Shown here: positions 14,148-42,549 of the stretch, piece after piece | Position numbering within the stretch: position 1 is the first letter of the stretch | Layout: every line of letters starts with the position of its first letter | From: Bacilli bacterium | GTDB lineage: Bacteria > Bacillota_I > Bacilli_A > RF39 > UBA660 | NCBI GenBank assembly: GCA_017410525.1 | Contig: JAFQQQ010000002.1 | Coordinates: 205,591-269,590, forward strand | Length of the DNA stretch: 64,000 nt | Direction of reading: 5' to 3' | Made by a program: the position numbers and the translations under genes | Notes under the pieces: generated by a model | The model's input: the letters and a program-made list of their open reading frames with translations, nothing else | Databases searched by the model: none | What the model was told of the DNA's origin: nothing

Positions 14148-14324
14148 ATGATATATATAGTAAGACATGGACAGACGGATTATAATGTAGAAGGTAGATA
14201 TGGTGGTAGGATAGGTGTAGAATTAAATATTAAAGGAATTGGGCAATCACATATCATTCATAATGAATTAAAGAATATAAAGTTTGATAATGAAAAACTA
14301 AAAGAATTACAAAAATATATATAA
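14148..14324 (+). pseudogene. Histidine phosphatase (phosphoglycerate mutase family) N-terminal remnant
   Basis: Encodes MIYIVRHGQTDYNVEGRYGG (RHG catalytic motif) but stops after about 59 aa. Further short unframed fragments follow to about 14470. Confidence 0.4.
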
Positions 14325-14522: not shown

Positions 14523-14557
14523 TTGACAAACAAAAAAAATTAGAGTATTATTTAATG
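14523..14557 (+). promoter_or_regulatory. Sigma-A-type promoter: TTGACA-17 nt-TATTAT
   Basis: Exact -35 hexamer TTGACA at 14523-14528, a 17-nt spacer and TATTAT -10, situated about 40 nt upstream of the RBS of the small Cys-rich ORF. Confidence 0.5.
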
Positions 14558-14593
14558 TAATATTTTTATCTTTTTAGACAAAGGAGGAATATT

Positions 14594-14740
14594 ATGGTTA
14601 ATTGCTTTAACATAGAAAGATCAGTGATAAAATCAAAATCTAATGTTATTTGCAACAGCTTCTGCTGCAATACTTTAGTATGCTTTTCAATTCTTTCTTG
14701 TCTAAATGAAAAGATGAAAAGCGATATAGCAAAGTCTTAA
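14594..14740 (+). CDS. Cys-rich 48-aa small ORF (MVNCFNIERSVIKSKSNVICNSFCCNTLVCFSILSCLNEKMKSDIAKS): candidate RiPP precursor or regulatory leader peptide
   Basis: Strong RBS AAAGGAGG 7 nt upstream of the ATG. Six Cys in 48 residues. The stop codon lies in the loop of the downstream terminator hairpin. Not in the supplied ORF track because it is under 60 aa. Confidence 0.45.
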   Translation: MVNCFNIERSVIKSKSNVICNSFCCNTLVCFSILSCLNEKMKSDIAKS

Positions 14741-14771
14741 TGACTTTTCTTGTCGCCTTTCATCTTTTTTC
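14708..14771 (+). terminator. Intrinsic terminator / attenuator hairpin overlapping the 3' end of the small ORF
   Basis: GAAAAGATGAAAAGCGA (14708-14724) pairs with TCGCCTTTCATCTTTTTTC (14753-71), followed by a T-run. The left arm encodes the last codons of the small ORF. Confidence 0.55.
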
Positions 14772-14803
14772 TTATAAAAATATAAAAGGAAAAGGAGGGA
14801 TTT

Positions 14804-16237
14804 ATGATAACTATTGAAAAATTATTAAATCATGTAAATACTTATAATCCTGGAGAAGAAGAAATTATAAGAAAAGCTTATGAGTATGCTGATTATTTAC
14901 ATGGAAATCAAATTAGACAAAGTGGAGAACCATATATTACACATCCTTTGAATGTTGCTTATATTTTATCTGAAATGCATGCAGATAGAGATACAATATG
15001 TGCTGCACTCTTACACGATACTCTAGAAGATACAAATACAACTAAAGAAGAAATAGCTGATTTATTTAATAAAGAAATAGCTAACTTAGTAGACGGAGTA
15101 ACAAAGATAAGTAAAATGAATTTTTCTAGTAAAGCAGAACAAAATTTAGCAAACACAAGAAAAATCATAACAGGGCTTACAGAAGATGTAAGAATAATAA
15201 TAATAAAATTAGCCGATAGACTTCATAACATGAGAACTTTAGAATTTAAATCTGAATTTAAGCAAAAAGAAAATTCTTTAGAAACAATGGAAATATTTGT
15301 ACCGCTTGCTTATTATATAGGTGCTTATAGAATAAAAAGTGAGCTAGAAGATATATCTTTTAAATATTTAAAACCAGATAAATATAAAGAAATAGAACAT
15401 AGAATAAATAACTCTAGTATTGAAAATAATAATTGCTTAAATGAAATGTTATTGAATATAGAAGAAATATTAAATAATGAGTCAATACCACATGAAATAA
15501 AAGTTAGAACAAAAAATATATATGGAATATATAAAAGAATAGATAATGGAGAAAACAAAATAAGTGATATACACGATTTATTATCTTTAAAAATAATGGT
15601 AGATGATATAAAAAATTGTTATATAACACTAGGTCTTATACATGATAAATATCATCCAATAAATGGAAGATTTAAAGATTATATTTGTAATCCTAAAACA
15701 AATCTATATAAATCTTTACATTCTACAGTATTTGGGCCTAATGAAAAATTAGTACAAACACAAATAAGAACATTTGATATGGATAAAATAGCATCCTTTG
15801 GTTTAACAGCATATTGGGATATAAATAAAGGTGATGCAAGATATACTATGCAACAAGATTTAAGAGATAATTTTCAATTTTTTAAATCATTATCAGATAT
15901 AAATGTTATGTTTAAGGATAATCAAGATTTTGTATCTCAAATAAAGAATGAATTATTCGCAAATAAAATTTATGTGTATACTACTAACGGTAAAATAATA
16001 GAATTACCTAAAGGATCAAATATTATTGATTTAGCTTGTTATATGGACATAGAAAATGTATTAATAGGAGCTAAAGTAAATGATGAAATAGTTCCTATTG
16101 ATTATATTTTAAAAAATAAAGATAGGGTAATACCACTTATAGATGAATTATCTTATGGATATAGAGAAAGTTGGATAGAAAAAGCGAATACAGTTTATGC
16201 TAAAAAGAAAATAAAGGGGTTAATAGAGAGTAGGTAA
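14804..16237 (+). CDS. RelA/SpoT homologue paralog (HD hydrolase + synthetase-like + TGS), truncated after TGS (477 aa)
   Basis: HD motif LLHDTLEDT, synthetase-domain block GRFKDYICNPKTNLYKSLHSTV..QIRTFDM and a TGS-like domain (IYVYTTNGKIIELPKGSNIIDLA). It lacks the C-terminal helical/ZFD/ACT domains of long RSHs. RBS AAAGGAGGGA. Confidence 0.75.
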   Translation: MITIEKLLNHVNTYNPGEEEIIRKAYEYADYLHGNQIRQSGEPYITHPLNVAYILSEMHADRDTICAALLHDTLEDTNTTKEEIADLFNKEIANLVDGVTKISKMNFSSKAEQNLANTRKIITGLTEDVRIIIIKLADRLHNMRTLEFKSEFKQKENSLETMEIFVPLAYYIGAYRIKSELEDISFKYLKPDKYKEIEHRINNSSIENNNCLNEMLLNIEEILNNESIPHEIKVRTKNIYGIYKRIDNGENKISDIHDLLSLKIMVDDIKNCYITLGLIHDKYHPINGRFKDYICNPKTNLYKSLHSTVFGPNEKLVQTQIRTFDMDKIASFGLTAYWDINKGDARYTMQQDLRDNFQFFKSLSDINVMFKDNQDFVSQIKNELFANKIYVYTTNGKIIELPKGSNIIDLACYMDIENVLIGAKVNDEIVPIDYILKNKDRVIPLIDELSYGYRESWIEKANTVYAKKKIKGLIESR

Positions 16238-16240
16238 AAA

Positions 16241-17401
16241 ATGTTATTTAGATTAGTTGCAATTCGTTGTCATAAAAATATAATTTTCTGTGACAGTTTT
16301 AATGAAAACTTTGAAAAAATACAATTAGCAATTCCATCAGAACTTTTCAACTCATTAGGACTTAAAGTAGGTAGTGTAATTTCTACAAATTATCAAATTA
16401 CTAAAAATAAATATGGAAATGATTTGTATTTCATAAATGATGTACAAAATGTATCAAATCATAATAAAAATATATCTTTTAAATCTATAAATACAAAATT
16501 ATCATCCATGAATCAATCTAGTTTTATTAGTGCATTAAATGGTGGAGTTAATTTAAAATATTGGGAAATGAAACAAAAACTTTTAGAAGAAATTAGAAAA
16601 TTTTTAGTAAATAGAAGTTACATAGAAGTAAATACTTCATTGTTAATGGATAATAGAGGTACTAGTACTGTTAACCCTATGCAAGTAAATGGTAAATACT
16701 GTGGTAATAAATATTTAAAAATAACTCATGAATTAGAATTAAAAAAAATTTGTTATCTTACTTTAAAATCATTATTTGAGATAGGATATGTAACAAGAGA
16801 TGTATATTCTACTAGTAAATCTGCTAATCAATATTTAACATTTGAATTAGTTGCACCTATAGAAGATACATTAACAGCAGAAGAATTATATATTTATGTT
16901 TATGAGATTGCAATTAAGTTGGCTGAATCATATGGTATTTCTTATAATGAGATATTTAATAAAATAGAAACAGTGGATGTTTTAAAATTATATTTATCAA
17001 ATCATAAAAAGATTGATAAGAAAGAATTCCTTGAGTTTTATAAAAAACTATTAGAATTAGAAAAAAATATAATATATGTAAATGCGCCTACCAATACTCC
17101 TTTAGCGAAAGAATCAGAATACGGAATACCTTTAGAAACAAAATGGGCTATAGGAAATAGGGGTATAGGTCATGGATATTATGATCAAAATCAGTTATCG
17201 GTTATAGAAAATTTATTTGAATTACAAAAAGATGCACTAAAAGAAAAAGGGATAGATTCCAGTGTTGATAAAGAATACTTAATGACTTTAATGTATGCAG
17301 GTATAGATACAAAAAGTTTAAATATAGGGATTGATAGATTTATGTATAAATTTTTAGGTTTAGATCACGAAGAGAAAGCAATAAAAATATTAGGATTATA
17401 G
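16241..17401 (+). CDS. Class II aminoacyl-tRNA-synthetase-like protein (LysRS-II/EpmA(PoxA)-like core with N-terminal OB-like region; degenerate motifs)
   Basis: Motif-1-like EIRKFLVNRSYIEVNTSLL, motif-2 region YLKITHELELKK..FEIGYVTRDV..ANQYLTFEL (FRNE/HNPEFT positions substituted) and motif-3-like IGIDRFMYKFLGL. Compared from memory with EpmA/LysRS. Confidence 0.55.
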   Translation: MLFRLVAIRCHKNIIFCDSFNENFEKIQLAIPSELFNSLGLKVGSVISTNYQITKNKYGNDLYFINDVQNVSNHNKNISFKSINTKLSSMNQSSFISALNGGVNLKYWEMKQKLLEEIRKFLVNRSYIEVNTSLLMDNRGTSTVNPMQVNGKYCGNKYLKITHELELKKICYLTLKSLFEIGYVTRDVYSTSKSANQYLTFELVAPIEDTLTAEELYIYVYEIAIKLAESYGISYNEIFNKIETVDVLKLYLSNHKKIDKKEFLEFYKKLLELEKNIIYVNAPTNTPLAKESEYGIPLETKWAIGNRGIGHGYYDQNQLSVIENLFELQKDALKEKGIDSSVDKEYLMTLMYAGIDTKSLNIGIDRFMYKFLGLDHEEKAIKILGL

Positions 17402-17411
17402 AGGTGAACAA

Positions 17412-18671
17412 ATGAAAGAAGATAAAATATTATTTTTGTATCCGCCGACAGTTTATGCTAACCATAGTATGTTTAAGCATTTTACTTATTTTGGCGAAAC
17501 GATAGATGTTATAAGTAGATATTATAAAAATATAAAAGTTTTAGACTGTGCAGTTGAACAAATAGAACAAAAGATAATATTTAATAATTTTAAAGATAGT
17601 AATTTATTAGTAATGGAAATAGAACCTTATAACATAGATGTTGCACTATCTTTAGGAAAATTATATAAATCATTCAACAGTAAAGGAAAAATTATAGTAT
17701 ATGGTACTGCAATTACAATAATGCCCAATTATTTTATGAAACAACATTTATTTGATTATATAATTAATGATGGTAATTTTGCTGTTGGTATATTGGGGGT
17801 AATGAATGAAATTTTAAATACAGAATATCCTTATGAAGTTAAGAGTAAATATTATGAATTAATAAATGGTGAGTATATAATGAAGGGTGATAATTTTCAA
17901 CTTCCAATAAAAGATTGGGGTGTTGGATATAATAAATTATTACCATTAGAAAAATATAAATTTTATAATAATGGTATGTTTGAATTAACTGTTCAAACCG
18001 GTTGCCCTTTTAATTGTTCTTTTTGTTCTGAAAAAATATTATTTGATAAGTATTGTGGAACAAAATATAGAGATGTTGAAGATATTATTAAAATAATGAA
18101 AAATATTAATGACGATTTTAATGAAATATATTTTTCTGCTACAACAATGACAGCAAATAGAAAATGGACTGAAAATTTATGTACTAGATTAATTGAAGAA
18201 GGTAATAAAATGCCTTGGAGAACAGTTACTAGAATTGATTGTGTTGATGAAGAATTGTTAAAATTAATGAAAAAATCAGGATTAAAGAAAATTTGTTTTG
18301 GTGTTGAAACGTTTGATGATAAATTATTAGAAGAGATAAATAAAAAACAAAATGCAAATAATGTAATTAATATATTAAAATTATGCAATAAATTAGGTAT
18401 TAAAGCCAAAGCTTTACTTATGTTGGGTATACCAGGACAAACAGCAAAAAATGTTTTTGATACAGTGAAAATATTAAAAGATTTAAATGTGGAATATAGA
18501 TTTAAAGAATATTCTCCTATTCGTGAAGCACATATATTAGATTCTAAAAATTCTGATATCTCTGATATGATTCCTATTTTTAGTAGATATGAATATAGAA
18601 CAAGTAGTATTCCTGGAATAACTAGTGAAGAATATATGGAATTACTTTTTCCTACAGAATATGTGAGGTAG
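17412..18671 (+). CDS. Radical SAM enzyme, probably class B (N-terminal B12-binding-like domain)
   Basis: CxxxCxxC motif TGCPFNCSFCSE in the middle of the protein, preceded by an about 190-aa Rossmann-like N-domain. Confidence 0.65.
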   Translation: MKEDKILFLYPPTVYANHSMFKHFTYFGETIDVISRYYKNIKVLDCAVEQIEQKIIFNNFKDSNLLVMEIEPYNIDVALSLGKLYKSFNSKGKIIVYGTAITIMPNYFMKQHLFDYIINDGNFAVGILGVMNEILNTEYPYEVKSKYYELINGEYIMKGDNFQLPIKDWGVGYNKLLPLEKYKFYNNGMFELTVQTGCPFNCSFCSEKILFDKYCGTKYRDVEDIIKIMKNINDDFNEIYFSATTMTANRKWTENLCTRLIEEGNKMPWRTVTRIDCVDEELLKLMKKSGLKKICFGVETFDDKLLEEINKKQNANNVINILKLCNKLGIKAKALLMLGIPGQTAKNVFDTVKILKDLNVEYRFKEYSPIREAHILDSKNSDISDMIPIFSRYEYRTSSIPGITSEEYMELLFPTEYVR

Positions 18672-18678
18672 ATTAGCA

Positions 18679-19707
18679 ATGATTGAACATTTAAAAAGTG
18701 GTTTGTCAATATCGACACATTTAGGTTGTGGATTAAAGTGCTCGTATTGTATTTTGTCAACCATGGACGGTTTTAATGAGGGCCCGGTATTACAAATTAA
18801 ACCCAAGGATTTAATATTTAAATTATTTAATGAATATGAATTTTATTGCAAAAATAAAACACCTTTAATGTTAAATAATAGAACAGATCCATTTTTACCA
18901 ACTGTAACACCGTATACTTTAGAAATTTTAGATTTATTAATTGAAAAGCAAGTCGAGTCTCCAATTATAATAATTTCAAAGTTTGCGCCGCCTACAGTTT
19001 TAAAAAAATATTTTTCTTTATTAAATATTTGTTACTTTTATTCTTATTCTGGTATAGATACTGATTTTAACTATAATAAACTTAAAAGTGATTTACAACT
19101 AATAAAAAATGTTGTTCCTAGGTCTTCTAGATTTCATTATTTTAGACCGATAATACCAGGAGTGAACGATGATTTTGAATTTATGAAAAAAATATTAAAT
19201 ATATTTAGTGAAAATGAATTTGATGCCACTGTAATTGCTGGATTTAGGGTAACTAATCTAAATAAACATTTAATAAAAAAGGAAACGATAGATGTTGAAA
19301 AAATTGATTATAATCATAAATTAGTAGATAGTAGTATATATGAAATAAATAAAATATTTAATGCCGAAAATTATCGTATATTTAGACATACTAGTTGTGC
19401 TATAGCAAACCATTTTAATTCTTTTAACAAATTAAATTATTTTTCAAAATGTGGTCATTGCTTTGAATCATGTCCTAACTATGACAACTGTTTAAATAAA
19501 AGAATAAATATTAAAGATATTTTAAAAGAACTTAAAGAAAAATTTGGTAATGAATATAATTTTAAAATTAAAGATAACAAAATTGAAATATTGTCTTTAT
19601 GTACTCAAGAATTAGTTGCTTATATAAAAAATGCTTATGGGTGTGAGATTATTGCAACCAATGTTAAATTATCAAAATCTGAAGAGGTGATTTTAGGTGA
19701 AAAATAA
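18679..19707 (+). CDS. Radical SAM enzyme with C-terminal Cys-rich (SPASM/twitch-like?) region
   Basis: N-terminal GCGLKCSYC (CxxxCxxC). The C-terminal cluster is CAIANH..CGHCFESCPNYDNC. Confidence 0.55.
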   Translation: MIEHLKSGLSISTHLGCGLKCSYCILSTMDGFNEGPVLQIKPKDLIFKLFNEYEFYCKNKTPLMLNNRTDPFLPTVTPYTLEILDLLIEKQVESPIIIISKFAPPTVLKKYFSLLNICYFYSYSGIDTDFNYNKLKSDLQLIKNVVPRSSRFHYFRPIIPGVNDDFEFMKKILNIFSENEFDATVIAGFRVTNLNKHLIKKETIDVEKIDYNHKLVDSSIYEINKIFNAENYRIFRHTSCAIANHFNSFNKLNYFSKCGHCFESCPNYDNCLNKRINIKDILKELKEKFGNEYNFKIKDNKIEILSLCTQELVAYIKNAYGCEIIATNVKLSKSEEVILGEK

Positions 19708-20248
19708 TATTATAGTGGGATGCGATTTACATAATACTTTGTTATTAAGCAATGAAGCTTGGATAAAAGCATTTATAAGTCTTAATTCTAAATTGGATAT
19801 AAATGAAATTTCTAATTTTATATATAGTAAAAAATCAAGAAAAGAAATGGCTAGATTATATAATATTGATTATAATGTATTATTAAATACTTATCATAAA
19901 AATTGTATTCCTAATATAAAATTATTAAATTTTATTAAAGAACTTAAAGTTAAAGGGTTTCCTATTGTTTTAATTTCTTCATCAAGCGAAGAAAAAGTAA
20001 AAAAAGATTTAGAGAAACTAAAAGAATATATTTCTTTTGATAAAATTTATACAAAAGAAACATTTTCTAAAAGTGTTTCTAAAGATTGGGATATGGTTAT
20101 AAAAGAATATAGAGCAAAATTTATGGTATATATAGGAAATGACTATGATGAAGATATAATACATAATGATAAAGTAATATCTATTCTTTCAGGACATTTT
20201 TTTACAGAATTGAAAAAAAACGGTTTTTTAGAAGAAAGAGGTAAATAA
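19697..20248 (+). CDS. HAD-like hydrolase (atypical motif I)
   Basis: N-terminal VGCDLHNTLL (DxHxT in place of DxDxT), Rossmann-like remainder. Overlaps the previous gene by 11 nt. Confidence 0.4.
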   Translation: MKNNIIVGCDLHNTLLLSNEAWIKAFISLNSKLDINEISNFIYSKKSRKEMARLYNIDYNVLLNTYHKNCIPNIKLLNFIKELKVKGFPIVLISSSSEEKVKKDLEKLKEYISFDKIYTKETFSKSVSKDWDMVIKEYRAKFMVYIGNDYDEDIIHNDKVISILSGHFFTELKKNGFLEERGK

Positions 20249-20250
20249 AA

Positions 20251-21168
20251 ATGGAAATATATTTAAAAAAAGAAGATATAGAAAGTTATCTAATAAATCA
20301 GGAAGAAAATATAAAAAACATGATTGATAATTTAGATTCAAGTTGGCCACATTATAATGCAGTGAAAAAATTATTAGAAGAGACTATGTTAGAAATAAAA
20401 AGAAAAGATATACATTGTAATGCTGTTTTATCTTCTACTAAGCATGAACGAAAAATAGAAAAATATGTAAATTGGGTTGAGGTTTATAGACTAGCAAATT
20501 ATCATTTTTCAAAATATACTAGTAGTAATACTTCTTATAGTGAAGGATTGTTTTCAACATTACTTGCGTTAAATAGTATGTATATACATAATAAAAAAAT
20601 TAAGGATATTGGAATAATTGGTTGTGGTCCAGGAAGAAGCGTTTTAGATTTTTCTTTAGCTTATCCAGATGCCACTATTTATGGTTTAGATTATTCCTTA
20701 GTTTCCTTAGTTTTAGCAAGAAATATTGTTAGTACAAATAATAAAAATATTGAGATTATAAGAAGAGATGATGAAGTAGTATTAGATAAAGTTGAAAGCT
20801 TTAATAGGACAAATTGTAAATGGGGAATGTTTGATTTAACTAAATCTAATTTAAATGAAAAATTTGATATCGTAGTATGTTCAAATGTAATAAATTTAAT
20901 GCCTAATCATAAAGATGCTATAAATAAAATTTATGATATGATAAAACCTAATGGATATTTAATATATGCTGATTTAACTGGTTGGAGATTAGATAGAAAG
21001 AAAGAACAACAATTACTTTCTGATAAAAAAGCTATAAAAAATAGTTTTGAAAACGTAGGCTTTGAAACTATAGAATGTTTTGATGGTGGACCATATATAG
21101 AAAAAGAAAATAAAGATAATTTCACGTTTTATAAACAAACTTATTATATAGGAAGGAAGGTAAAATGA
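20251..21168 (+). CDS. Class I SAM-dependent methyltransferase
   Basis: Motif I IGIIGCGPGRSVLDF, motif post-I DYS, 305 aa. Confidence 0.65.
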   Translation: MEIYLKKEDIESYLINQEENIKNMIDNLDSSWPHYNAVKKLLEETMLEIKRKDIHCNAVLSSTKHERKIEKYVNWVEVYRLANYHFSKYTSSNTSYSEGLFSTLLALNSMYIHNKKIKDIGIIGCGPGRSVLDFSLAYPDATIYGLDYSLVSLVLARNIVSTNNKNIEIIRRDDEVVLDKVESFNRTNCKWGMFDLTKSNLNEKFDIVVCSNVINLMPNHKDAINKIYDMIKPNGYLIYADLTGWRLDRKKEQQLLSDKKAIKNSFENVGFETIECFDGGPYIEKENKDNFTFYKQTYYIGRKVK

Positions 21169-21824
21169 AAAATATAATATTATTAAGTGGACCTGATAAA
21201 ACAAAATATTTTGCTAAGGAAATATCAAAAGAAATAAAAAATAACGTTACGCATCCAACAAATATGGTTGTAATACCGGCTGATCCAAATAATTATGAAA
21301 AAAATGATAAACAATTTAAAGGGAATGAAAGTGTAGTTGGAGTATTTAAAACATTTAAAAAAATATTTCCAGATATAAATATTGTTTTGTTAGATAATAG
21401 AGTAGATTCTACAAGTGGATTAAACAAGTTGAAGAAAGCAGATATTATTTATCTACTTGGTGGAAATCCTTTTATTCAATTAGAATACTTGCAAAAAAAT
21501 AATTATAGTGATACAATATGCAGCACAAATGCATTGGTTATGGGAGTTAGTGCTGGATCAATGAATTTAGCTGTTGATTCTTATTATTCTAAAGATGAGG
21601 ATTATCCAGAAAGTGTAATTTATAAAGGATTAGGAATTGTTGACATGACTATAGATCCACATTTTGATATTAACAATGAAGAACAGGTTAAAGAAATAAA
21701 AGTTAATTCAAAAGATAGAAAAATTATTGGTTTACCAAATGATTCAGCAATAATTGTTTCAAATAATAATATAAAATATATTGGTGATATTTATTTATTT
21801 GAAAATGGTGAATTAACTAATTAA
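21165..21824 (+). CDS. Peptidase S51 (dipeptidase E / cyanophycinase-like) family protein
   Basis: GGNPF..., the nucleophile elbow GVSAGS and a downstream His region. Overlaps the previous gene by 4 nt. Confidence 0.55.
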   Translation: MKNIILLSGPDKTKYFAKEISKEIKNNVTHPTNMVVIPADPNNYEKNDKQFKGNESVVGVFKTFKKIFPDINIVLLDNRVDSTSGLNKLKKADIIYLLGGNPFIQLEYLQKNNYSDTICSTNALVMGVSAGSMNLAVDSYYSKDEDYPESVIYKGLGIVDMTIDPHFDINNEEQVKEIKVNSKDRKIIGLPNDSAIIVSNNNIKYIGDIYLFENGELTN

Positions 21825-21855
21825 TTAGTTAGTTTACAAGATAGGGGGAATTGGA

Positions 21856-23433
21856 ATGAATTGGGCATTAGAAGAAGCAAAAAAATTAGTTGAAAAGCAT
21901 CCTGAAAAGGAAGAATTTGTAATCGCATCGGGGGTTAGTCCATCTGGATTTATACACATAGGAAATTTTAGAGAAATCGTTACTACATTTTTTGTAGGTA
22001 AAGAATTAGAAAATTTAGGGAAAAAAGTTAGATTTATATTATCGTTTGATGATTTTGATAGATTTAGAAAAGTTCCTAAAGGAATGCCGGAAAGTTATAG
22101 TAAGTATATAGGAATGCCTTATACTAGTATACCTAGTCCATTTAGTGAAAATAAAACTTATGCTAAAGAAATGGAAGATATATTTGTAAGTGAATTAAAT
22201 AGACTAGGAATTAATCCTGAAACCATATCTCAAACAGAACAATATAAAAGTGGAAGATATGATGATAAAATTAAATTAGCTATGGAACAAAGAAAAAAAA
22301 TATTTGATATAATGGCTAATTATAAAACTCAAGAATTTACAGAAGAAGATAGAAATAATTATTATCCTATAAGTTTATATTGTGAAGAATGTGGTAAAGA
22401 TTCAACAACTATATTAAATTATAATGATGTAACAGGTGATGTAGAATATAAATGTACTTGTGGGCATCATCATATTCAAAATATAAATAAATGTGGTAAT
22501 ATAAAGTTACAATGGAAAATTGATTGGCCAATGAGATGGCAAAAAGAAGGGGTAATTTTTGAACCAGGTGGTAGAGATCATTCTGCAGAAAATGGAAGTT
22601 ATGCTGTATCAAAAGAAATATCTAAACGAATTTTTGAATATGAAGCACCATCCTATGTAGCCTATGATTTTATTGGTATTAAAGGCGCTAATGGTAAAAT
22701 GGCTTCATCAACAGGAAATGTTTTAACATTAACTGATTTATTAAGTGTTTATGATAAAAATATAATATTATGGTTTTATGCCAAAAATAGACCTAATCAT
22801 CAATTTAATATAGCGCTTGATGAAGATGTATTAAGATTCTATACAGAATATGATAGGATGGTAAAAGCATATTTTGAAGGTAAATTAGATGATAAAAATT
22901 CTAGTATTATATCATTAACAGGAGTAACTAGTGGGTATGTTAATAATCCTAATTTTGGATATATAGCAAACTTTTTACCGATGGTAAGTTATAAAGAAGA
23001 AGCACTTGCAAAATTATTAAGTAAAGAAAATATTGATTGTTCTACATTATATTTTAAAAATAGATTACTAAGAGCAACCAATTGGTTAGAAAAATATAAT
23101 AATAGTAAAATAAAAGTGTTAGATGAATTTAATCAAGAATATTATGAAACATTAAGTGATGAAGAAAAAGAATGGTTAGAAAAAACTTTAGTTGTTTTAC
23201 AAAATGAATATGAAACTACTCAGGATTTACAAACAGATTTATATGCTATTGTAAAAAATGGTATAGAAGATTCTAAAGAATTAAAAAATAAACAAAGAAG
23301 ATATTTTCAGATAATTTATAATTTAATTATAGGAAAAGATAATGGACCAAAAATGGGATTATTGCTATCTGCAATGGATTATGAAGTTGTAAAATCTAAA
23401 TTGCAAAAATCAAAAGAAAAAAAATTAAGATAA
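21856..23433 (+). CDS. lysK: Class I lysyl-tRNA synthetase (LysK-type)
   Basis: ASGVSPSGFIHIGNFREIVT (HIGH-equivalent of class-I LysRS) and KMASSTGN (KMSKS). 525 aa. Only 32 nt after the previous gene, so no T-box leader is possible. Confidence 0.8.
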   Translation: MNWALEEAKKLVEKHPEKEEFVIASGVSPSGFIHIGNFREIVTTFFVGKELENLGKKVRFILSFDDFDRFRKVPKGMPESYSKYIGMPYTSIPSPFSENKTYAKEMEDIFVSELNRLGINPETISQTEQYKSGRYDDKIKLAMEQRKKIFDIMANYKTQEFTEEDRNNYYPISLYCEECGKDSTTILNYNDVTGDVEYKCTCGHHHIQNINKCGNIKLQWKIDWPMRWQKEGVIFEPGGRDHSAENGSYAVSKEISKRIFEYEAPSYVAYDFIGIKGANGKMASSTGNVLTLTDLLSVYDKNIILWFYAKNRPNHQFNIALDEDVLRFYTEYDRMVKAYFEGKLDDKNSSIISLTGVTSGYVNNPNFGYIANFLPMVSYKEEALAKLLSKENIDCSTLYFKNRLLRATNWLEKYNNSKIKVLDEFNQEYYETLSDEEKEWLEKTLVVLQNEYETTQDLQTDLYAIVKNGIEDSKELKNKQRRYFQIIYNLIIGKDNGPKMGLLLSAMDYEVVKSKLQKSKEKKLR

Positions 23434-23456
23434 ACTAAATTTGTTTATCTTTTTTG
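23428..23456 (+). terminator. Rho-independent terminator ending the 14.5-23.4 kb operon
   Basis: AGATAAAC-loop-GTTTATCT followed by TTTTTT, immediately after the lysK stop. Confidence 0.55.
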
Positions 23457-23514: not shown

Positions 23515-23997
23515 ATGATAAGAGAAGCTTTAGAAAAAGATGCTGAGAGAATTGTATATATTAATGTAATGTCTTGGAAAAATACGTATAAACATATTTT
23601 TCCACAAGATTTTTTAGATAGTCTTAATCCTATGAGTATTGATAATATTGAAAAATGTAAGAAAAAAATAAATCAATATATAGTATATGAAGTTGATAAT
23701 AAGGTAGTAGGGTTTGCTAGATTTGGATTAAATAAGAAAAATTATGGTAATGAGTATGGAGAAATACATGCTTTATATTTAGATGATAATTATAAGGGAA
23801 TGAATATAGGAACTGAGCTTGTAAAGTATATATTTGAAAAATTGAAGTCAACATATAAATATGTCTTGATAAGTACTTTAGTTGAAAATAATGCTAATAC
23901 ATTTTATAAAAAATTAGGTGGAAAATTTATAGGTCAAAGTGAATTTGAATTAGAAGGTAAAAAATATTTAGAAAATGTATATGAATATGTTTTATAA
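23515..23997 (+). CDS. GNAT family N-acetyltransferase
   Basis: 160 aa with an acetyl-CoA-binding motif region (..VVGFARFGL...GMNIGTELV..). Own extended -10 (TGTTATAAT) upstream. Confidence 0.65.
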   Translation: MIREALEKDAERIVYINVMSWKNTYKHIFPQDFLDSLNPMSIDNIEKCKKKINQYIVYEVDNKVVGFARFGLNKKNYGNEYGEIHALYLDDNYKGMNIGTELVKYIFEKLKSTYKYVLISTLVENNANTFYKKLGGKFIGQSEFELEGKKYLENVYEYVL

Positions 23998-24059: not shown

Positions 24060-24767
24060 GTGTTTATGAATAAATTTTTAAAAGATATAGAATTTGATAA
24101 TGAATATATAAATTCATGTATAACTAAAGTAGATAATAAATTAAAAGAATATATAAACAATAAAATATTACCTGAATATGATTTAAATGATGAAGGTCAT
24201 AATAAAAATCATATAGAGTTTGTTCTTAAAAGAGCGCTTGAACTAAGTAAAAATTATGATATAAATTACAATATTTTATATGTGTCTGTTAGTTTTCATG
24301 ATATTGCTTGTCATATAAATAGAGAAGAACATGAAGTTTTATCTGCTAATATAGCTTATAAAGATGAATTTTTAAATAAATTCTTTAATAAAGAAGAATT
24401 AACTATAATAAAAGAAGCAATAGAAGACCACAGGGCATCTTCAGATAAAATACCACGTAATATATATGGAAAAATATTATCTTCAGCTGATAGAAAAGTA
24501 GATATAAAAACATATTTGATTTCCTCTTTATTCTTTCAAGTAACAGATATTAGTAATTTAGATATGAATGAAGCAATAGAACAATCTTATAATCATGCTA
24601 TTAAAAAATTTGGTAAGAATGGGTATGCTACTAATAAGTTTTACGTAGATGACAAAAGATATAAAGAATTTCTTACAAACTTACAATATCTAATTGATAA
24701 TAAAGATGAGTTTTATAAATTAGCTGAAATAGTATTTAATGAAGTTAAAAGCAATAAAAAGAATTAA
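24060..24767 (+). CDS. HD-domain phosphohydrolase
   Basis: H...HD pattern (NHIEFV ... VSFHDIACH) and a later D (SSADRK). Confidence 0.55.
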   Translation: MFMNKFLKDIEFDNEYINSCITKVDNKLKEYINNKILPEYDLNDEGHNKNHIEFVLKRALELSKNYDINYNILYVSVSFHDIACHINREEHEVLSANIAYKDEFLNKFFNKEELTIIKEAIEDHRASSDKIPRNIYGKILSSADRKVDIKTYLISSLFFQVTDISNLDMNEAIEQSYNHAIKKFGKNGYATNKFYVDDKRYKEFLTNLQYLIDNKDEFYKLAEIVFNEVKSNKKN

Positions 24768-24895: not shown

Positions 24896-25001
24896 TTATT
24901 TTTTAACACATTTTTGTTGAAATGAGTTGTTGGAATGTGCTAAAATATATTTGTAATTAAAGATATGTTGCAGATTATTAAATCGATTGGGGGAAACGAT
25001 T

Positions 25002-26807
25002 ATGGAAAATAAAAAATTTGTTTTTGATAAGGAAGGCAGTAAAAAAATTACGGGATTTGCTTCTATAGATAAACCTTGGAATAGATTTTATAGAAAAGAA
25101 CCTATTAGAGAAATTAAGTTAAATCAAACTATTTATGATATGGTATTTGGTGAAAACATTAATAATATGGATGACGATGCTCTGGGATATTTAGGAGTTA
25201 GCTTAACTTTCAATCAATTAAAAGCTAAAGTTGACCAATTTGCAGATGCGTTACTTAAATCTGGTTTAAATAGCGGTGACGTAGTTTTAATGGGGGTTTC
25301 TAATTCTCCTGAATCTATCATAGCATTATTAGCATTAAATAAAATTGGTGTAGTTTCTAAGTGGTTTGATATTAGAGCAAGTGAAAAAGATATAGAAACA
25401 TATGCAAAATCAAGTAATTGTAATTATATGATTGCATTCGATATGTTAATACCTAAAATAGAAAAAACATTATCGAATGTGGATTTTAATAAAATAATAA
25501 TAATAAATCCAACAGATTCTTTACCAAAAATTAAACAAGAATTATATAAACTTCAATGTAAGAAAAATGGAACATATGTAAAAATGCCTTCGGATAAGAG
25601 ATTTGTTAGGTTTAATAATTTTATGAAATTAGGAAGCAATAATTCAAAATTAGAAAGTGTCCAATTTGATGCCACAAAACCTTCAATTATGATACAATCA
25701 AGTGGTACTACGGGTAAACCAAAAACTATAGTTCATTCTGATTCTTCTTGTGTTAATTGTACTCATAAAATGGCTTATACAGATTTACCGTTAGGTAGAG
25801 GTAAAAAGATGTTAGTAGCTTTACCGCCTTGGATTGCATATGGATTAGGTAATGCCATAATAATGCCTTTATCATATGGAACTAAGGTAGAACTTAGCCC
25901 TAATTTTGATCCTAATGCTGTATTAAAAAATATAGGTAAGTTTACTATTTCTTTTGCAGCTCCATTTCATTATCGTTATTTAAAAGAACATTTTTCAGAA
26001 TTAACTGAAAAGCAAAAAGAAGCTTTTAAAATGGTTGAATGCTTAGCGTCTGGTGGAGACAAAATGTCTATAGAAGAAAATAACGATTTTGAGAAGACCT
26101 TTGGCGTTGTACTTATAAATGGTTATGGTAACAATGAAGGTTGGGGGGTATTAACTGTAAATCCTACACTTCATAATAAATATGGTACAGTTGGTATACC
26201 TAAATTTGGCGATTTAGTAATCAGTTATGATACTGACAATGAAAAAGAAAATGCATATGGTGAGTGGGGAGAAATATGCTCATTAACTGATACTTCAATG
26301 TTGTATTACGAAGATAATTTAGAAGAAACTAAAAAAACTTTACAAACTCATCCAGATGGTAAAGTTTGGATACATACTGGAGATTTAGGTTTTATAGATG
26401 AAGATGGTTTTATTCATTTAGGTGGAAGAGCTAGACGAGTTATTGTAAGGCTAGGATTTAAAATATCTGCATATACAATAGAAGATAAATTATCTGAACA
26501 TCCAGCAGTAAAAGAATGTGTTGCGGTTTCTGTAAAAGATGCTGAAGAAGAACATGTTCCAATGGTATACATAATTTTAAAAGACGAGTATAAAGCATTA
26601 TCTGATACAATAGAAAATGATATATATGTAAAATTGTCACAAGAATTAAAAGAATATGAAATACCAAAATATTTTAGAATTGTTGATAGTTTACCATATA
26701 CTCAAAATGGTAAATATGATTTTGTTTCTTTAGAAAAATATGGTAACGAATATGTTGATAGTTTAGATTCAAACGATAAAATATTTAAAAAGAAAATAGG
26801 TGATTAA
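25002..26807 (+). CDS. AMP-dependent synthetase/ligase (adenylate-forming enzyme, acyl-CoA-ligase-like)
   Basis: AMP-binding P-loop SSGTTGKPKT, GYG.NE and the C-terminal hinge. Start moved to ATG 25002 after RBS TGGGGGA. Confidence 0.8.
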   Translation: MENKKFVFDKEGSKKITGFASIDKPWNRFYRKEPIREIKLNQTIYDMVFGENINNMDDDALGYLGVSLTFNQLKAKVDQFADALLKSGLNSGDVVLMGVSNSPESIIALLALNKIGVVSKWFDIRASEKDIETYAKSSNCNYMIAFDMLIPKIEKTLSNVDFNKIIIINPTDSLPKIKQELYKLQCKKNGTYVKMPSDKRFVRFNNFMKLGSNNSKLESVQFDATKPSIMIQSSGTTGKPKTIVHSDSSCVNCTHKMAYTDLPLGRGKKMLVALPPWIAYGLGNAIIMPLSYGTKVELSPNFDPNAVLKNIGKFTISFAAPFHYRYLKEHFSELTEKQKEAFKMVECLASGGDKMSIEENNDFEKTFGVVLINGYGNNEGWGVLTVNPTLHNKYGTVGIPKFGDLVISYDTDNEKENAYGEWGEICSLTDTSMLYYEDNLEETKKTLQTHPDGKVWIHTGDLGFIDEDGFIHLGGRARRVIVRLGFKISAYTIEDKLSEHPAVKECVAVSVKDAEEEHVPMVYIILKDEYKALSDTIENDIYVKLSQELKEYEIPKYFRIVDSLPYTQNGKYDFVSLEKYGNEYVDSLDSNDKIFKKKIGD

Positions 26808-26862
26808 ATCTATTTTCTTTTTTGTCGTTTTATGATATACTGAAATCATAGGAGGGTAAGAA

Positions 26863-29082
26863 ATGTTGTTTGGTAATATAAATAATACAATGCTATTTTC
26901 TTTGATTTCAGTTTTTTACATGATTTGCTTTGCAATTGGATTTTTTGCTCGTAAAAAAGTTAAATCTGTAGAATTAACGATATTTAAAGGTCTAATTTTA
27001 ACTAATTTAATTTCGTTGATAGTAGAAATATTATTAGTAATATTGATTTTAAATAATAGTAATTTTTTAAATATAATGTTAAGATTTTTTAATGTGTGTA
27101 TTTTTTCATATGTTTGGTTTTTCGGACTCTATAGTTATTTTGTTTTAAAAAGAAGTAAGGAACTTAATTCTAAAAGCTCTTTATTCGTTCTTTATTTAAT
27201 ATATTATTTTGTCTGTTGTATTGGAATGATGATTTCAAAAGTTGAATTGAATCCTGTAGATTTTATGCAATATTCAAAGGGGCCTAGTGTTCAAGTTTTA
27301 TTTATCGCAGTTGGAATGATTGTAATGGTAACAATTATGATGCTTTTAATAAATATAAAAAATATAAAGAAAATAAAATGCACTCCAATAATTATGTTCG
27401 TTTTGTTTATTGGTATAAATGCCATAATTCAATTTATATGGCCTCACATTTTATTGGCTAATTCTTTATTCAGTTTTGTTACATTTTTAATGTACTTTAC
27501 AATAGAAAATCCAGATATAAAGATGGTAAACCAATTAGAACTCGCTAAAGATCAAGCAGAAAAAGCAAACAATGCTAAAACTGATTTCTTAAGTAATATG
27601 TCTCATGAAATAAGAACTCCATTAAATGCTATAGTAGGATTTAGTCAATGTATAGAAAATGCTACTAACTTAGAAGAAGCAAAAGAAGATGCTAAAGATA
27701 TAGTAATGGCTTCTAATAACTTACTTGATATAGTAAATGGTATACTTGATATAAGTAAGATTGAAGCAGATAAGATGGAAATAGTTAATACTGAATATAA
27801 CCTAAAAGAAATATTAGATAATTTAGTAAAACTTATTATACCTAGAATAGGTGAAAAAGATATTGAATTAAAAACTCATTTTGCTGAAGATTTACCAGAG
27901 GTATTATATGGAGATAGTGGTAAAGTAAAACAAATTATTACTAATGTTTTAACTAATGCTGCTAAATATACTGAACAAGGTGAAATTAACTTTAAGGTTA
28001 ATTGTGTTAACGAAAAAGATAAATGCAGATTAGTTATATCTATAAGAGATACTGGTAGAGGTATTAAAACTGAACAAATAGATAAATTATTTAATAAGTT
28101 CCAAAGACTTGATGAAGACAAAAATACAACTACTGAAGGTACTGGACTTGGACTTGCTATTACTAAGAGACTTGTTGAAATGATGGGTGGTAAAATAGTA
28201 GTTCAAAGTGAATATGGAGAAGGTTCTACTTTTACAATTTATTTAACTCAAGAAATAAGAAATGGTTTATATAAAAAAGAAGAAGTTATAGAAGAAGAAA
28301 TAAGTTTTGATAGTAAAAAAGTATTATTAGTAGATGATAATAAATTAAATATTAAAGTAGGTACTAAAATATTAAGAGAATATAATCTAGATATAACACC
28401 TTGTGAAAGCGGATTTGAATGTATAAACAAAATAGAAAATGATAATAATTATGACATTATACTTTTGGATATTATGATGCCTAAAATGAGTGGTGTTGAA
28501 ACTTTAAAAAGATTAAAACAAATAGATGGTTTTGATACTCCTGTAATAGCACTTACAGCAGATGCTATTCAAGGCAGAGAAAATAAATATTTAGAAGTAG
28601 GATTTAGTGGTTATTTATCTAAACCTATTGAACATAGTGAACTAAAAAAGGTATTATCTAAATATTTAATAAGTGTTAAAAAAGAAGAAATTGAAATATT
28701 TGATGAAATCAAAAAAGATAAAAAAGATATTGATTATTTAAAAGAAAGTGGTATTGATGTAGATAGTAGTTTAGAACTTTTAGGAGATATGGAAACATAT
28801 AATGAAACTTTAAAAGATTTCTTAACTGAATGTGAAACAAGACTTCCTAAAATGAAAGAACACTTATCTAATAATGATTCAAATAATTATGCAATACTTA
28901 GCCATGCTTTAAAGAGTGATAGTAAATATTTAGGTTTTAAAAAACTTGCTGAACTATCTTTAGATCATGAATTAAAAGGTAAAGAAAATGATTTAGAATA
29001 TATTAAAGAAAATTCTAACGAACTTATGGATGAAGCAGAAAAAATAATAAATATTATTAAAAATTATTTAGGAGATGAATAA
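26863..29082 (+). CDS. Hybrid sensor histidine kinase (multi-TM sensor + HisKA + HATPase + receiver + C-terminal HPt)
   Basis: About six N-terminal TM helices, H-box [17 protein letters not shown]-boxes (GTGLGLAI), a receiver domain ([21 protein letters not shown]) and HPt-like [12 protein letters not shown]. Confidence 0.8.
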
Positions 29083-29583: not shown

Positions 29584-30546
29584 ATGTTAATTATGAAAAA
29601 TGAAATAATTTTATTTGAAAATCAAGATGTCAAACTTGATGTAAATATAAAAGATGACACAGTATGGTTAAATGCAAAGCAAATAGCTGAATTATTTGAT
29701 AGGGATTATAAAACAATTAGAAAACATATTAATAATGCATTGGAAGAAGAATTAAAAGATGAAGTGGTTGTCGCAAAATTTGCGAATACCACAAAACATG
29801 GTGCAATTAAAGAAAAAAACCAAACTCATATGGTAGATTATTACAATTTAGATGTAATAATATCAGTTGGTTATAGAGTTAAATCTAAAAATGGTATTAT
29901 ATTTAGAAAATGGGCAAATAAAATATTAAAAGAATATTTATTAAAGGGATATGTAGTAAATCAAAAAAGATTAGAATATTTAGAAAAAACTGTTAAGTTA
30001 ATAGATATAGCTAATAGGATTGATGATGAATTAGAAGGTAATGAAGCTAAAGAAATATTAAAAGTAATAGGGGATTATTCTAAAGCCTTAGATTTACTTG
30101 ATAATTATGATCATAAAGATATTACAAAAGTTAAAGGTAGTATTAGTGATAAAAAGATAACTTACAAAGAATGTATAGAAATAATAAATAAATTAAGATT
30201 TAATAGTGATAGTAAGTTATTTGCGCTAGAAAGAGATAAGGGATTAGAATCTATAATAGGTGATATTTATCAAACATTTGATAAAAAAGATGTATATAAA
30301 AGTATTGAAGAAAAGGCTTGTAATTTTCTTTATATGATTATTAAAAACCATGTATTTATAGATGGTAATAAAAGAATAGGTGCGACATTATTTATATATT
30401 TCTTACAATTTTATAATATTTTATATAAGAATGGTAAACAAGTAATAGATAATAATACATTAGTTGCTTTAACACTCCTAATTGCACAATCTAATCCAAA
30501 AGAGAAAGAATTAATAATAGATTTAGTTATGAATTTCTTGGAATAA
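29584..30546 (+). CDS. RhuM-family N-terminal domain fused to Fic/Doc toxin domain
   Basis: The N-terminus resembles the RhuM family (IILFENQDVKLDV..DDTVWLNAKQIAELF). The C-terminus carries the Doc-type motif HVFIDGNKRIGATLF (HxFx(D)GNKR). Confidence 0.6.
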   Translation: MLIMKNEIILFENQDVKLDVNIKDDTVWLNAKQIAELFDRDYKTIRKHINNALEEELKDEVVVAKFANTTKHGAIKEKNQTHMVDYYNLDVIISVGYRVKSKNGIIFRKWANKILKEYLLKGYVVNQKRLEYLEKTVKLIDIANRIDDELEGNEAKEILKVIGDYSKALDLLDNYDHKDITKVKGSISDKKITYKECIEIINKLRFNSDSKLFALERDKGLESIIGDIYQTFDKKDVYKSIEEKACNFLYMIIKNHVFIDGNKRIGATLFIYFLQFYNILYKNGKQVIDNNTLVALTLLIAQSNPKEKELIIDLVMNFLE

Positions 30547-39912: not shown

Positions 39913-39989
<77 letters not shown>

Positions 39990-40003
39990 TCTTATTAAAA
40001 TAT

Positions 40004-40080
40004 GGCCGGTTGGTGAAGCGGCTTAACACACATGCCTTTCACGCATGCATTCACGGGTCCGAATCCCGTACCGGTCACCA
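40004..40080 (+). tRNA. tRNA-Glu (anticodon UUC)
   Basis: Acceptor GGCCGGT/ACCGGTC, anticodon stem CATGC/GCATG with loop CTTTCAC, T arm ACGGG-TCCGAAT-CCCGT, CCA encoded. Resembles the Bacillus tRNA-Glu sequence, judged from memory. Confidence 0.8.
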
Positions 40081-40091
40081 TATGTTAATTA

Positions 40092-40118
40092 ACCCTTGAT
40101 TTTCAAGGGTTTTTATTT
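40092..40118 (+). terminator. Terminator hairpin AACCCTTGA..TCAAGGGTT + T-run after the tRNA pair
   Basis: Perfect 9-bp stem, 4-nt loop, TTTTTATTTT. Confidence 0.6.
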
Positions 40119-40128
40119 TGTCGTTTGA

Positions 40129-40153
40129 GTTTTGGTCTTGTTTTTGGTCTTGT
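40129..40153 (+). repeat. Tandem direct repeat TTTTGGTCTTGT x2
   Basis: GTTTTGGTCTTGTTTTTGGTCTTGTAA. Related copies recur at 41365-41401. Confidence 0.6.
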
Positions 40154-41345: not shown

Positions 41346-41364
41346 GCTAAATAACTATTTTTTG

Positions 41365-42546: not shown

Positions 42547-42549
42547 AGT

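Follow-up and report, generated by a model that had tools for sequence, protein, structure and literature searches.

A modular operon of gut bacteria that joins radical-SAM enzymes and a lysyl-tRNA synthetase paralogue to a class I lysyl-tRNA synthetase: a candidate antimetabolite cassette

The subject of this analysis is an operon of nine open reading frames (ORFs) in a 64,000-nucleotide stretch (the window) of contig JAFQQQ010000002.1, assigned to a Bacilli bacterium. Behind a short leader ORF, it combines a RelA/SpoT homologue (RSH), a paralogue of class II lysyl-tRNA synthetase (LysRS2), two radical S-adenosylmethionine (radical-SAM) enzymes, a HAD-like protein, a methyltransferase, an S51-family peptidase and a class I lysyl-tRNA synthetase (class I LysRS, here LysK). 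By analogy with known antimetabolite clusters, we tentatively propose that it is a biosynthetic cassette for an aminoacyl-tRNA synthetase (aaRS)-directed antimetabolite, aminoacyl-nucleotide-like or lysine-mimicking, that comes together with self-protection. What we observed is the anatomy of the operon, the families of its proteins, changes in their active sites, their co-inheritance, a modular swapping of the payload, and a recurrent linkage to aaRS, S51, S66 and GNAT genes. A first-pass annotation of the window had offered several options, among them a metabolite derived from lysine or an aminoacyl-nucleotide with LysK as a dedicated or resistant copy. It is this option that gains most from the comparative evidence, namely the five arrangements in which LysK occurs, a sister cassette with a threonyl-tRNA synthetase (ThrRS), and the co-occurrence of S51, S66 and GNAT genes, but the product and the resistant nature of the LysRS copy stay conjectural.

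Anatomy of the operon and its leader

All nine ORFs run in one direction and span positions 14594-23433 of the window. Their coordinates are exactly those of the first-pass annotation, and the ORF gaps of 3, 10, 7, -11, 2, -4 and 31 nt were re-derived as it had given them. The tight co-directional block that it described was confirmed in this way, and the comparisons below indicate that the block is inherited and moved as a unit. The features of the region are the following:

14523-14551, + strand: sigma-70-type promoter TTGACA-17-TATTAT, the best regional match (11/12)
14594-14740, + strand: leader ORF of 48 codons with 6 Cys, preceded by a strong Shine-Dalgarno sequence (SD; AAAGGAGG) at 6-nt spacing
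14708-14776, + strand: intrinsic terminator/attenuator, a hairpin with U-tract, with the leader stop codon (14738-14740) in its apical loop
14804-16237, + strand: short long-RSH, RshC-like, with HD, degenerate SYNTH and TGS domains and without helical, CC and ACT regions
16241-17401, + strand: LysRS2-derived paralogue (ORF3), an OB fold plus a remodelled class II core, with GHGY
17412-18671, + strand: radical-SAM enzyme (ORF4) resembling B12-domain (class B-like) families, with CPFNCSFC
18679-19707, + strand: new radical-SAM family (ORF5), with CX3CX2C (C17/C21/C24) plus C240, C261, C265 and C271
19697-20248, + strand: HAD-like protein (ORF6), with motif I D-x-H-x-T and motif IV GN[DE]xx[ED]D
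20251-21168, + strand: class I SAM-dependent methyltransferase (52.4 bits), whose N-terminal part of ~110 aa has no family match
21165-21824, + strand: S51-family peptidase (Peptidase_S51, 64.9 bits), with the nucleophile motif GVSAGS
21856-23433, + strand: class I LysRS (LysK), apparently intact, with HIGN, KMASS and Zn-Cys motifs
23427-23455, + strand: weak AT-rich hairpin with U-tract that overlaps the stop codon of LysK at the end of the operon

The promoter that had been placed at 14523 is the top match of the region. Promoter-like matches as a class are not enriched (103 versus 104 in shuffled sequences); the case for this promoter rests not on match frequency but on position, because the -35 hexamer TTGACA is kept at the equivalent place in five of the related loci with which the window cassette was compared (designated by L-numbers; here L007, L008, L009, L046 and L061). 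At the other end, the closing terminator of the first-pass annotation is present as a hairpin with a U-tract, but it is weak (dG -8.6, z -3.6) and was not called by the terminator scan. A far stronger terminator between the mini-ORF and the RSH gene (14708-14770) had been overlooked.

This leader hairpin has a dG of -28.2 (z -7.6) and is directly followed by a U-tract, and the whole 252-nt leader folds beyond its shuffles (z -4.4). The layout of a promoter, a small SD-bearing ORF and a terminator was found in all seven related loci that were compared for it, the window included. In the window, where it is UAA, the leader stop codon lies in the apical loop of the hairpin, as it also does in L061 and L046; L007, L008 and L040 have it in the 5' arm, and the leader ORF of L009 reads through and meets the RSH gene in an ATGA overlap. 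The leader peptides are not conserved, with between zero and six Cys over the seven loci. They belong to at least two unrelated families, a Cys-rich one formed by the window, L007, L009 and L040 and a second, with the pattern 'ARN.Y..N.IYSC' and one Cys each, by L061 and L046, and the leader of L008 has 19 codons and is Cys-free; the C-terminal residues differ as well (S, E, Q, L or K). The Cys codons lie mostly within predicted stems, and in the window, L040, L061 and L046 they fall in the segment that pairs with the leader's own SD (anti-SD), so that the Cys-richness may be a by-product of RNA structure. The leader codons are, on these predicted folds, constrained by the hairpin. We read the mini-ORF as the translated leader of a putative ribosome-controlled attenuator.

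Codon runs such as E-K-M-K on the 5' arm in the window and T-V-T-E-I-T in L046 suggested amino-acid-specific attenuation, with Lys codons in Lys-type leaders and Thr codons in ThrRS-type leaders. This idea was rejected because the leader and terminator of the Lys-type locus L061 are homologous to those of the ThrRS-type locus L046, and because the L040 leader is Lys-rich and Cys-rich despite a payload that matches L046 up to the contig end, beyond which the terminal aaRS of L040 lies out of view. A T-box or riboswitch was also rejected. The Rfam covariance search of the region was negative, in agreement with the first-pass annotation, which had noted no T-box; at E<=1 the leader gave only chance miRNA-like matches on the hairpin, and the leaders of the related loci had no Rfam match either.

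Protein families and active-site changes

Profile searches (Pfam, NCBIfam) upheld every family assignment made earlier. ORF3 is only weakly matched by tRNA-synt_2 (31.4 bits), and about 30 relatives were found in 5.8 billion proteins. Its AlphaFold2 (AF2) model (pLDDT 83.5) consists of an N-terminal five-stranded barrel and a class II core, and in the PDB it is matched best by full-length LysU/LysS (Foldseek E 4.5e-19, TMq 0.68). With class II LysRS it shares the fold, the arginines of motifs 2 and 3, and the equivalents of E240 and E278 of E. coli LysS; unlike it, ORF3 scores far under the TIGR00499 cut-off (48.1 bits against 427.6) and has its lysine and Mg ligands replaced. R262 of E. coli LysS is also retained, F274 is Tyr, and ORF3 conserves R186 as well as the Arg of GIDRF in motif 3. 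The substituted catalytic motifs that had been noted in this class II aaRS-like protein could be specified as H270 to S, N271 to A, Y280 to V, E421 to G or T (G in the window) and N424 to H, the E421 and N424 replacements being present in all ORF3 members, which carry a GHGY signature. A conserved E299 is a possible stand-in for E414. The E421 and N424 replacements are common to ORF3 and the LysRS2-like paralogues of the sister ('T-type') cassettes; the cluster-linked proteins in L033, where the gene follows ORF5 and ORF6, and in L036 are canonical, bona fide class II LysRS. ORF3 is, as judged from these alignments, a derived and undescribed branch of LysRS2. The EpmA/PoxA models score 33.3 bits (TIGR00462, cut-off 286.9) and 36.9 bits (NF006828, cut-off 264), and ORF3 keeps the N-terminal OB domain, which EpmA does not have. 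An ORF3-type paralogue also occurs behind an N-terminal radical-SAM domain in a single 666-aa fusion protein (P0150; L013, 730-2730), whose gene is followed by a zinc-dehydrogenase-like gene. A plasmid search with ORF3 gave no match.

ORF4 has the CX3CX2C core and matches Radical_SAM (PF04055, 80.7 bits). Its best family matches are the B12-domain radical-SAM enzymes HpnJ, PhpK and ApyD, and its N-terminal 40-190 residues align to the HpnJ, BzaD and ladderane B12-radical-SAM models. The earlier designation as a B12-type enzyme stands in so far as ORF4 resembles such families (HpnJ, PhpK), but the B12-binding domain itself (PF02310) had no Pfam match even at E<=5; the ORF4 homologues in L005 and L066 have weak PF02310 matches. 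ORF5 (342 aa) belongs to no Pfam or NCBIfam family. As had been described, it is a second radical-SAM enzyme with a C-terminal Cys cluster, and both CX3CX2C and the four C-terminal Cys are invariant among its relatives, of which 132 were found in 5.8 billion proteins. SPASM, twitch and RRE domains were found in neither ORF4 nor ORF5, and no lysine-aminomutase model was among the NCBIfam matches of ORF4 (the best 25 of 44) or ORF5. The plasmid search detected remote ORF5 homologues (22-30% identical). The two viewed in their gene context, those of an Agrobacterium vitis plasmid (L059, 9923-12218) and a Nostoc plasmid (L060, 9956-11764), 25-27% identical, pair with an 'AAA family ATPase' of ~195 aa, in A. 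vitis also with a 3'-5' exonuclease, in surroundings that resemble defence islands (dGTPase, GIY-YIG, TIR, WYL and toxin-antitoxin genes). At such identities, these plasmid proteins appear too distant for a transfer of function.

The HAD, methyltransferase and S51 assignments likewise hold. ORF6 passes the HAD_2 cut-off (26.3 bits against 23.8) and has motifs II-IV; in motif I, the nucleophile Asp is kept and Asp+2 is His in all nine homologues. The methyltransferase co-occurs in L005, L012, L021, L023-L028 and L034. S51 peptidase genes are also present in L015, L042, L047 and L065, and the window enzyme is not a PepE orthologue (41 bits with the PepE equivalog, cut-off 156).

The RSH protein matches HD_4 (139.6 bits), RelA_SpoT (99.1 bits) and TGS (38.5 bits), and aligns to positions 1-449 of the 687 of TIGR00691 (502.6 bits), ending at residue 477. 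The regulatory C-terminus had been reported as absent; the helical, CC/ZFD and ACT/RRM regions are indeed lost, but TGS is retained. The HDxxED hydrolase motif is intact, LLHDTLEDT aligning to B. subtilis Rel (6yxa), whereas the catalytic Glu of SYNTH (LEVQIRT in B. subtilis) has been replaced by Gln (VQTQIRT) in the RSH of the window and in those of L007 and L009. We searched 1.84 billion representatives and examined the best 150 matches. Among the 49 of at most 560 aa, the catalytic position is Q in 15 and E in four, and the motif is lost in 29; the long Rels have the catalytic E in 93 of 101. In the homologue beside a distant ORF3-containing cluster (L014), the middle domain is fully degenerate, with HD and TGS kept. 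The architecture is that described for RshC, a divergent second-copy long RSH in Bacilli, possibly of horizontal origin, which consists of HD, SYNTH and TGS, is cut short inside the helical domain and lacks CC and ACT; its description is based on six Bacillus strains, with the annotation [HS] (PMC3153485). Unlike RshC, the window RSH and its short relatives have a Gln or have lost the catalytic Glu (44 of 49), and the window RSH heads a radical-SAM/aaRS operon. The protein presumably hydrolyses (p)ppGpp-like 3'-pyrophosphates and binds tRNA 3' ends through TGS.

LysK had been called a bona fide class I LysRS, which is borne out by the TIGR00467 score (415.4 bits, cut-off 147.55), the HIGN and KMASS motifs and a full-length alignment of residues 2-516 to P. 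horikoshii LysRS (1irx). No other LysRS was found within the 64-kb window. LysK is linked to these genes in at least five arrangements: as the last gene (window type) or the first (L012/L021), downstream of ORF3 (L024), together with a NUDIX gene on the opposite strand (L016), and after a different radical-SAM cassette (L066). The copies with a tRNA_bind domain (L012, L016, L021 and L024) form a clade of their own (61-80% identical), and that of L012 lies at a position like that of lysS in dus-greA-lysS, the usual gene order. Many metagenome-assembled genomes (MAGs) named 'Bacilli bacterium' (e.g. L017 and L018) carry a stand-alone class I LysRS of 517 aa, 56-60% identical.

Distribution, relocation and sister cassettes

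As far as the sequence searches tell, the operon occurs in only a few dozen bacteria of the gut and in some archaea. Uncultured gut Bacilli, 'Tenericutes' and Erysipelotrichaceae have the full cassette (60-85% identical), and the same eight large genes stand in the same order in L007, L009, L019, L020 and L061-L065, and without the RSH gene in L008. Together with the small numbers of ORF5 and ORF3 relatives given above, this agrees with the sporadic, co-inherited distribution that had been anticipated. The flanks of the window-type cassette, LysK included in it, differ (ackA in the window, comEC/xfp in L061-63, MacB in L008). Because the gene order is the same despite these differing flanks, the block, including LysK, is best described from the sequences as relocating as a unit. 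A foreign base composition of the cassette was ruled out, the G+C content being flat at ~24% throughout the window.

A core of ORF4, ORF5 and ORF6 recurs from Paenibacillus to Marsarchaeota and is also present in one Lachnospiraceae isolate. In Lachnoclostridium and its relatives, the order is LysK-tRNA_bind, ORF4, ORF5, ORF6, methyltransferase, ORF3. In Paenibacillus and Christensenellaceae (L001 and L011), the core trio lies beside GT4/GT2 glycosyltransferase, radical-SAM-SPASM and DltA/DltC-like genes, and the Christensenellaceae copy sits on a mobilisable element. Marsarchaeota have ORF3 and a HAL-like enzyme with the core, and next to it a bona fide HisRS. No tRNA gene was found within the cluster genes of any locus scanned; the nearest are a tRNA-Ala gene ~1 kb upstream of the HAL-like gene of L003 and a tRNA-Ser gene ~0.3 kb past the L011 cluster.

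Several sister cassettes were detected. That of L046 (5820-14864), L043 and L045, from the human gut and also seen in L040, adjoins Mob_Pre. In its leader and RSH it is 91% identical to the Lys-type locus L061 (the RSH 72% to that of the window), but it has a different payload, which consists of DUF402, a radical-SAM enzyme, a LysRS2-like paralogue, an ORF5-like radical-SAM enzyme (28%), a HAD-methyltransferase fusion, a cytidine deaminase and a bona fide ThrRS of 581 aa, apparently without the N-terminal TGS domain. Another (L038, 317-4962; L044; L048) has an ORF5-like radical-SAM enzyme, a HAD-methyltransferase fusion, a 443-aa LysRS2-like paralogue and an S66 (MccF-family) LD-carboxypeptidase; a serine recombinase gene follows the L038-type cassette. 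In L016, a GNAT gene, unrelated to the GNAT gene of the window, is tightly coupled to ORF3, with a NUDIX gene also present, and the sister cassette of L047 carries an S51 peptidase. A fourth radical-SAM cassette lies between ffh and rpoZ/recX in L066 (3937-11602) and comprises a radical-SAM-SPASM enzyme, a HisPhos-APH kinase fusion, a B12-binding, PhpK-like radical-SAM enzyme, a tyrosine-phosphatase-like protein, a short ProRS without the editing insertion, and a LysK that is 66% identical to that of the window. Across these cassettes, nucleotide-handling enzymes recur (HD, HAD, NUDIX, DUF402, deaminase and His_Phos), as do genes of immunity type: S51 in the window, L015, L047 and L065, S66 (MccF family) in L038/L044, and GNAT in L016. 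The comparison indicates that the system is modular, with a regulatory head, exchangeable radical-SAM payloads, and then an aaRS and/or an S51, S66 or GNAT gene.

The gene set had been described as no known housekeeping arrangement, and searches of NCBIfam, PADLOC, Rfam and the literature for a matching system agree; the literature searches for this gene combination gave nothing specific. A known defence system was rejected as an explanation: the PADLOC anti-phage defence models gave only weak generic matches, and relatives were not found in viral contigs.

Other features of the window were recorded as well. Just ahead of the operon promoter, a 58-codon ORF (14148-14324, +) with the motif RHGQTDYN represents the N-terminal fragment of a CobC/histidine-phosphatase family protein (PDB 6nru, E 2.5e-6), to all appearance the remnant of a truncation; related cassettes also have His_Phos_1 domains, as a methyltransferase-HisPhos fusion in L005 and a HisPhos-APH fusion in L066. 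A 255-codon antisense ORF with a TTG start (17993-18760, -), within ORF4 and the ORF4/ORF5 junction, is presumed spurious. Directly past LysK lie genes for a GNAT acetyltransferase (23515-23997, +) and an HD-domain protein (24060-24767, +). The GNAT is 53% identical to one encoded just upstream of the L009 cassette and is absent from L061 and L065; it may be an MccE2-like immunity gene of the system. Then follow, at 24987-29082 (+), genes for an AMP-binding enzyme of 606 aa and for a hybrid histidine kinase of 739 aa (HisKA-HATPase-REC-Hpt), a pair also found past LysK in L009, with a like AMP-binding gene in L065 and L043. About 6 kb downstream of the cassette, a RhuM-family/Fic-domain protein (29584-30546, +) is of a type typical of mobile or toxin-like modules. 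Seven tRNA genes lie at 39913-50385, including tRNA-Lys(CUU) at 50310-50385, ~27 kb from the cassette.

What the cassette may make

The scheme that we tentatively favour would work as follows. At the head, with its promoter, its leader ORF ending in a terminator and its RSH gene, ribosome occupancy of the leader would decide on read-through. The payload of ORF3, the two radical-SAM enzymes, the D-x-H HAD-like phosphohydrolase and the methyltransferase would together produce a small molecule containing or imitating lysine or lysyl-adenylate, an antimetabolite of the aminoacyl-nucleotide type. Protection would come from the S51 peptidase, which is of the family of MccG, an enzyme that cleaves toxic aminoacyl-nucleotides, and from the class I LysRS, whose structure bears no relation to that of the class II enzyme, the presumed target of the product. 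In this scheme we infer the production of a toxin, LysRS as its target, the formation of an aminoacyl-nucleotide bond by ORF3, and immunity through LysK and S51.

Two described systems are similar in their logic. In agrocin 84 synthesis (agn, on pAgK84), the phosphoramidate bond is proposed to be formed by AgnA, a protein with an aaRS adenylation domain (PMC9239234, PMC8323819), and a full extra aaRS, the LeuRS AgnB2, protects the producer (PMC8323819). By analogy, ORF3 and LysK could hold these places, and both systems are found on mobile DNA; unlike the cassette, agn has an exporter, AgnG, and the aaRS here is a class I LysRS, or a ThrRS in the sister cassette. In microcin C clusters (mcc), a short ORF and then a ribosome-dependent terminator stand ahead of the enzymes, as in the window; the compound made is an aminoacyl-nucleotide directed against a class IIb aaRS (PMC9239234, PMC8323819). 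The immunity genes of these clusters encode the S51 enzyme MccG, the S66 enzyme MccF and the GNAT enzyme MccE2, which detoxify aminoacyl-nucleotides, sometimes along with an extra aaRS, such extra copies conferring immunity to aaRS inhibitors (PMC9239234, PMC8323819). In contrast to mcc, the leader peptides here are variable and none ends in Asn, the chemistry involves radical-SAM enzymes, and the linked aaRS is LysRS or ThrRS rather than AspRS; an MccB/ThiF-like adenylyltransferase was not found in the block by profile search.

Several points weigh against this scheme. No compound is known for the cassette, and the characterised S51 enzymes PepE, cyanophycinase and MccG all use aspartyl substrates (PMC9239234). 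What keeps our proposal tentative is that the conserved block has no exporter; that ORF3 has lost the E421 Mg ligand, so that adenylate formation appears doubtful; that the window LysK could serve as the housekeeping enzyme instead of being an additional, resistant copy, since related Bacilli MAGs carry a stand-alone class I LysRS; that the ThrRS-type cassette also has a LysRS2-like paralogue, so that the paralogue does not obviously specify the amino acid; and that the core trio beside glycosyltransferases and DltA/DltC-like genes suggests chemistry of the envelope or of a metabolite rather than a toxin.

The main alternative, a serious one although we rate it as somewhat unlikely, is that the genes serve a tRNA(Lys)-dependent pathway, in which the pseudo-synthetase ORF3 would hold (Lys-)tRNA(Lys) charged by the class I LysRS while the radical-SAM enzymes and the methyltransferase remodel the lysyl group or a tRNA nucleoside, or in which ORF3 would transfer lysine to an acceptor. 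Its homologue of the OB anticodon domain and its retained Lys- and adenosine-contacting residues, with the E421 Mg ligand lost, would suit such a role, as would the radical-SAM-ORF3 fusion P0150, the extra tRNA_bind domain of LysK in L012, L016 and L024, the linkage mostly to class I LysRS, and a partner RSH with a dead synthetase but a retained TGS, a domain for binding the CCA end of tRNA. Class I LysRS and class II enzymes come to tRNA from opposite faces, and there are reports of ternary LysRS1:LysRS2:tRNA complexes. A particular form of this pathway, which we hold to be quite improbable, is a 'trans-modifosome': with its OB domain and its disabled class II pocket, the pseudo-synthetase would dock on the Lys-tRNA(Lys) that the class I LysRS makes, at the opposite face of the acceptor stem, the radical-SAM enzymes, adjacent or fused to it, would remodel the lysyl group on the tRNA, and the same tRNA end would be sensed by the RSH with its TGS domain and dead synthetase; this would be a new way of modifying amino acids that depends on tRNA. 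Cyclodipeptide synthases and PEARLs, which are aaRS-derived or tRNA-using and do not activate amino acids, consume aminoacyl-tRNA for secondary metabolism; being class I-like or LanB-like, they are unrelated in sequence, and the likeness is one of logic. A tRNA(Lys) pathway sits badly, however, with clusters that contain no tRNA gene, with the same kind of paralogue in the ThrRS-type cassette, and with a core trio that also occurs without ORF3 and without an aaRS, beside glycosyltransferases; the HAD, NUDIX, DUF402, S51 and S66 genes fit small-molecule handling better. Distinctly unlikely, in our judgement, is a non-toxic metabolite or an envelope modification, for which the core would make a sugar, cyclitol or polyol phosphate to which ORF3 attaches lysine, as MshC acts in mycothiol synthesis or as in the D-alanylation and lysylation of envelope polymers; LysK and RSH would then be housekeeping neighbours under a regulation shared with translation. 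Consistent with this are the NCBIfam alignment of ORF4 that is both top-ranked and longest, to the hopanoid-biosynthesis-associated radical-SAM enzyme HpnJ, which is linked to aminosugar ring contraction, the glycosyltransferase and DltA/DltC-like neighbours in L001 and L011, the general use of class I LysRS in the lineage and the dus-greA-lysS-like position of LysK in L012. On the other side are the ThrRS version on a mobilisable element, the recurrence of S51, S66 and GNAT genes, an RSH of the synthetase-dead, second-copy type that is not a normal Rel, and the movement of the block, LysK included, as a unit.

The option of a ribosomally synthesised and post-translationally modified peptide (RiPP), with the Cys-rich mini-ORF as the radical-SAM substrate, did not survive the comparison well, and we consider it very improbable, also in the form of a scaffold peptide that is lysylated from Lys-tRNA and cleaved by S51. 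Four of the seven leaders have 3-6 Cys, synonymous changes between the window and L007 keep SxIKSxSNVIC and SCLN, and the microcin C enzymes are also preceded by a small ORF and a terminator (PMC8323819); yet the peptides are unconserved across loci whose enzymes are 70-85% identical, the leader of L008 being Cys-free and those of L061 and L046 having one Cys each, and the same leader family precedes unrelated payloads. The absence of SPASM, twitch and RRE domains from ORF4 and ORF5, the lack of a match to SCIFF or another precursor family, and the position of Cys codons in predicted stems and the anti-SD segment, which may reflect RNA structure, also argue against it; the constant feature is the stop codon inside the terminator hairpin. 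Hardly credible is a lysylation of elongation factor P (EF-P) or another protein analogous to EpmA/EpmB/EpmC, the third option of the first-pass annotation. The presence of radical-SAM enzymes and the weak matches of ORF3 to the EpmA/GenX models (33-37 bits) recall that pathway, but the scores fall far short of the model cut-offs (264-287), the OB domain is still present in ORF3 and the E421 Mg ligand is gone, an aminomutase is not among the NCBIfam matches listed, and a ThrRS variant and archaeal versions exist.

In the searches made, no curated family, defence catalogue, RNA family or paper describes this combination. The cassette is best filed with the self-resistance-linked antimetabolite clusters. 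Whatever its chemistry, the analysis defines four uncharacterised protein families, namely the LysRS2 paralogues with GHGY, the radical-SAM family of ORF5, the HAD family with D-x-H and the short RSHs with a dead synthetase, as well as a conserved and likewise uncharacterised attenuator in which a leader ORF ends in the terminator. If the tRNA-dependent alternative were true, the operon would be a new case of amino-acid chemistry on tRNA. To our knowledge, no bacterial natural inhibitor of LysRS has been described, and literature searches found none. If the aaRS-directed antimetabolite proposal is true, the operon would represent a family of such compounds in the gut microbiome, made by radical-SAM chemistry around a repurposed LysRS, with payloads (Lys, Thr, possibly His or Pro) swapped behind one regulatory head, and with a strategy of self-resistance that exploits the dichotomy between class I and class II LysRS.

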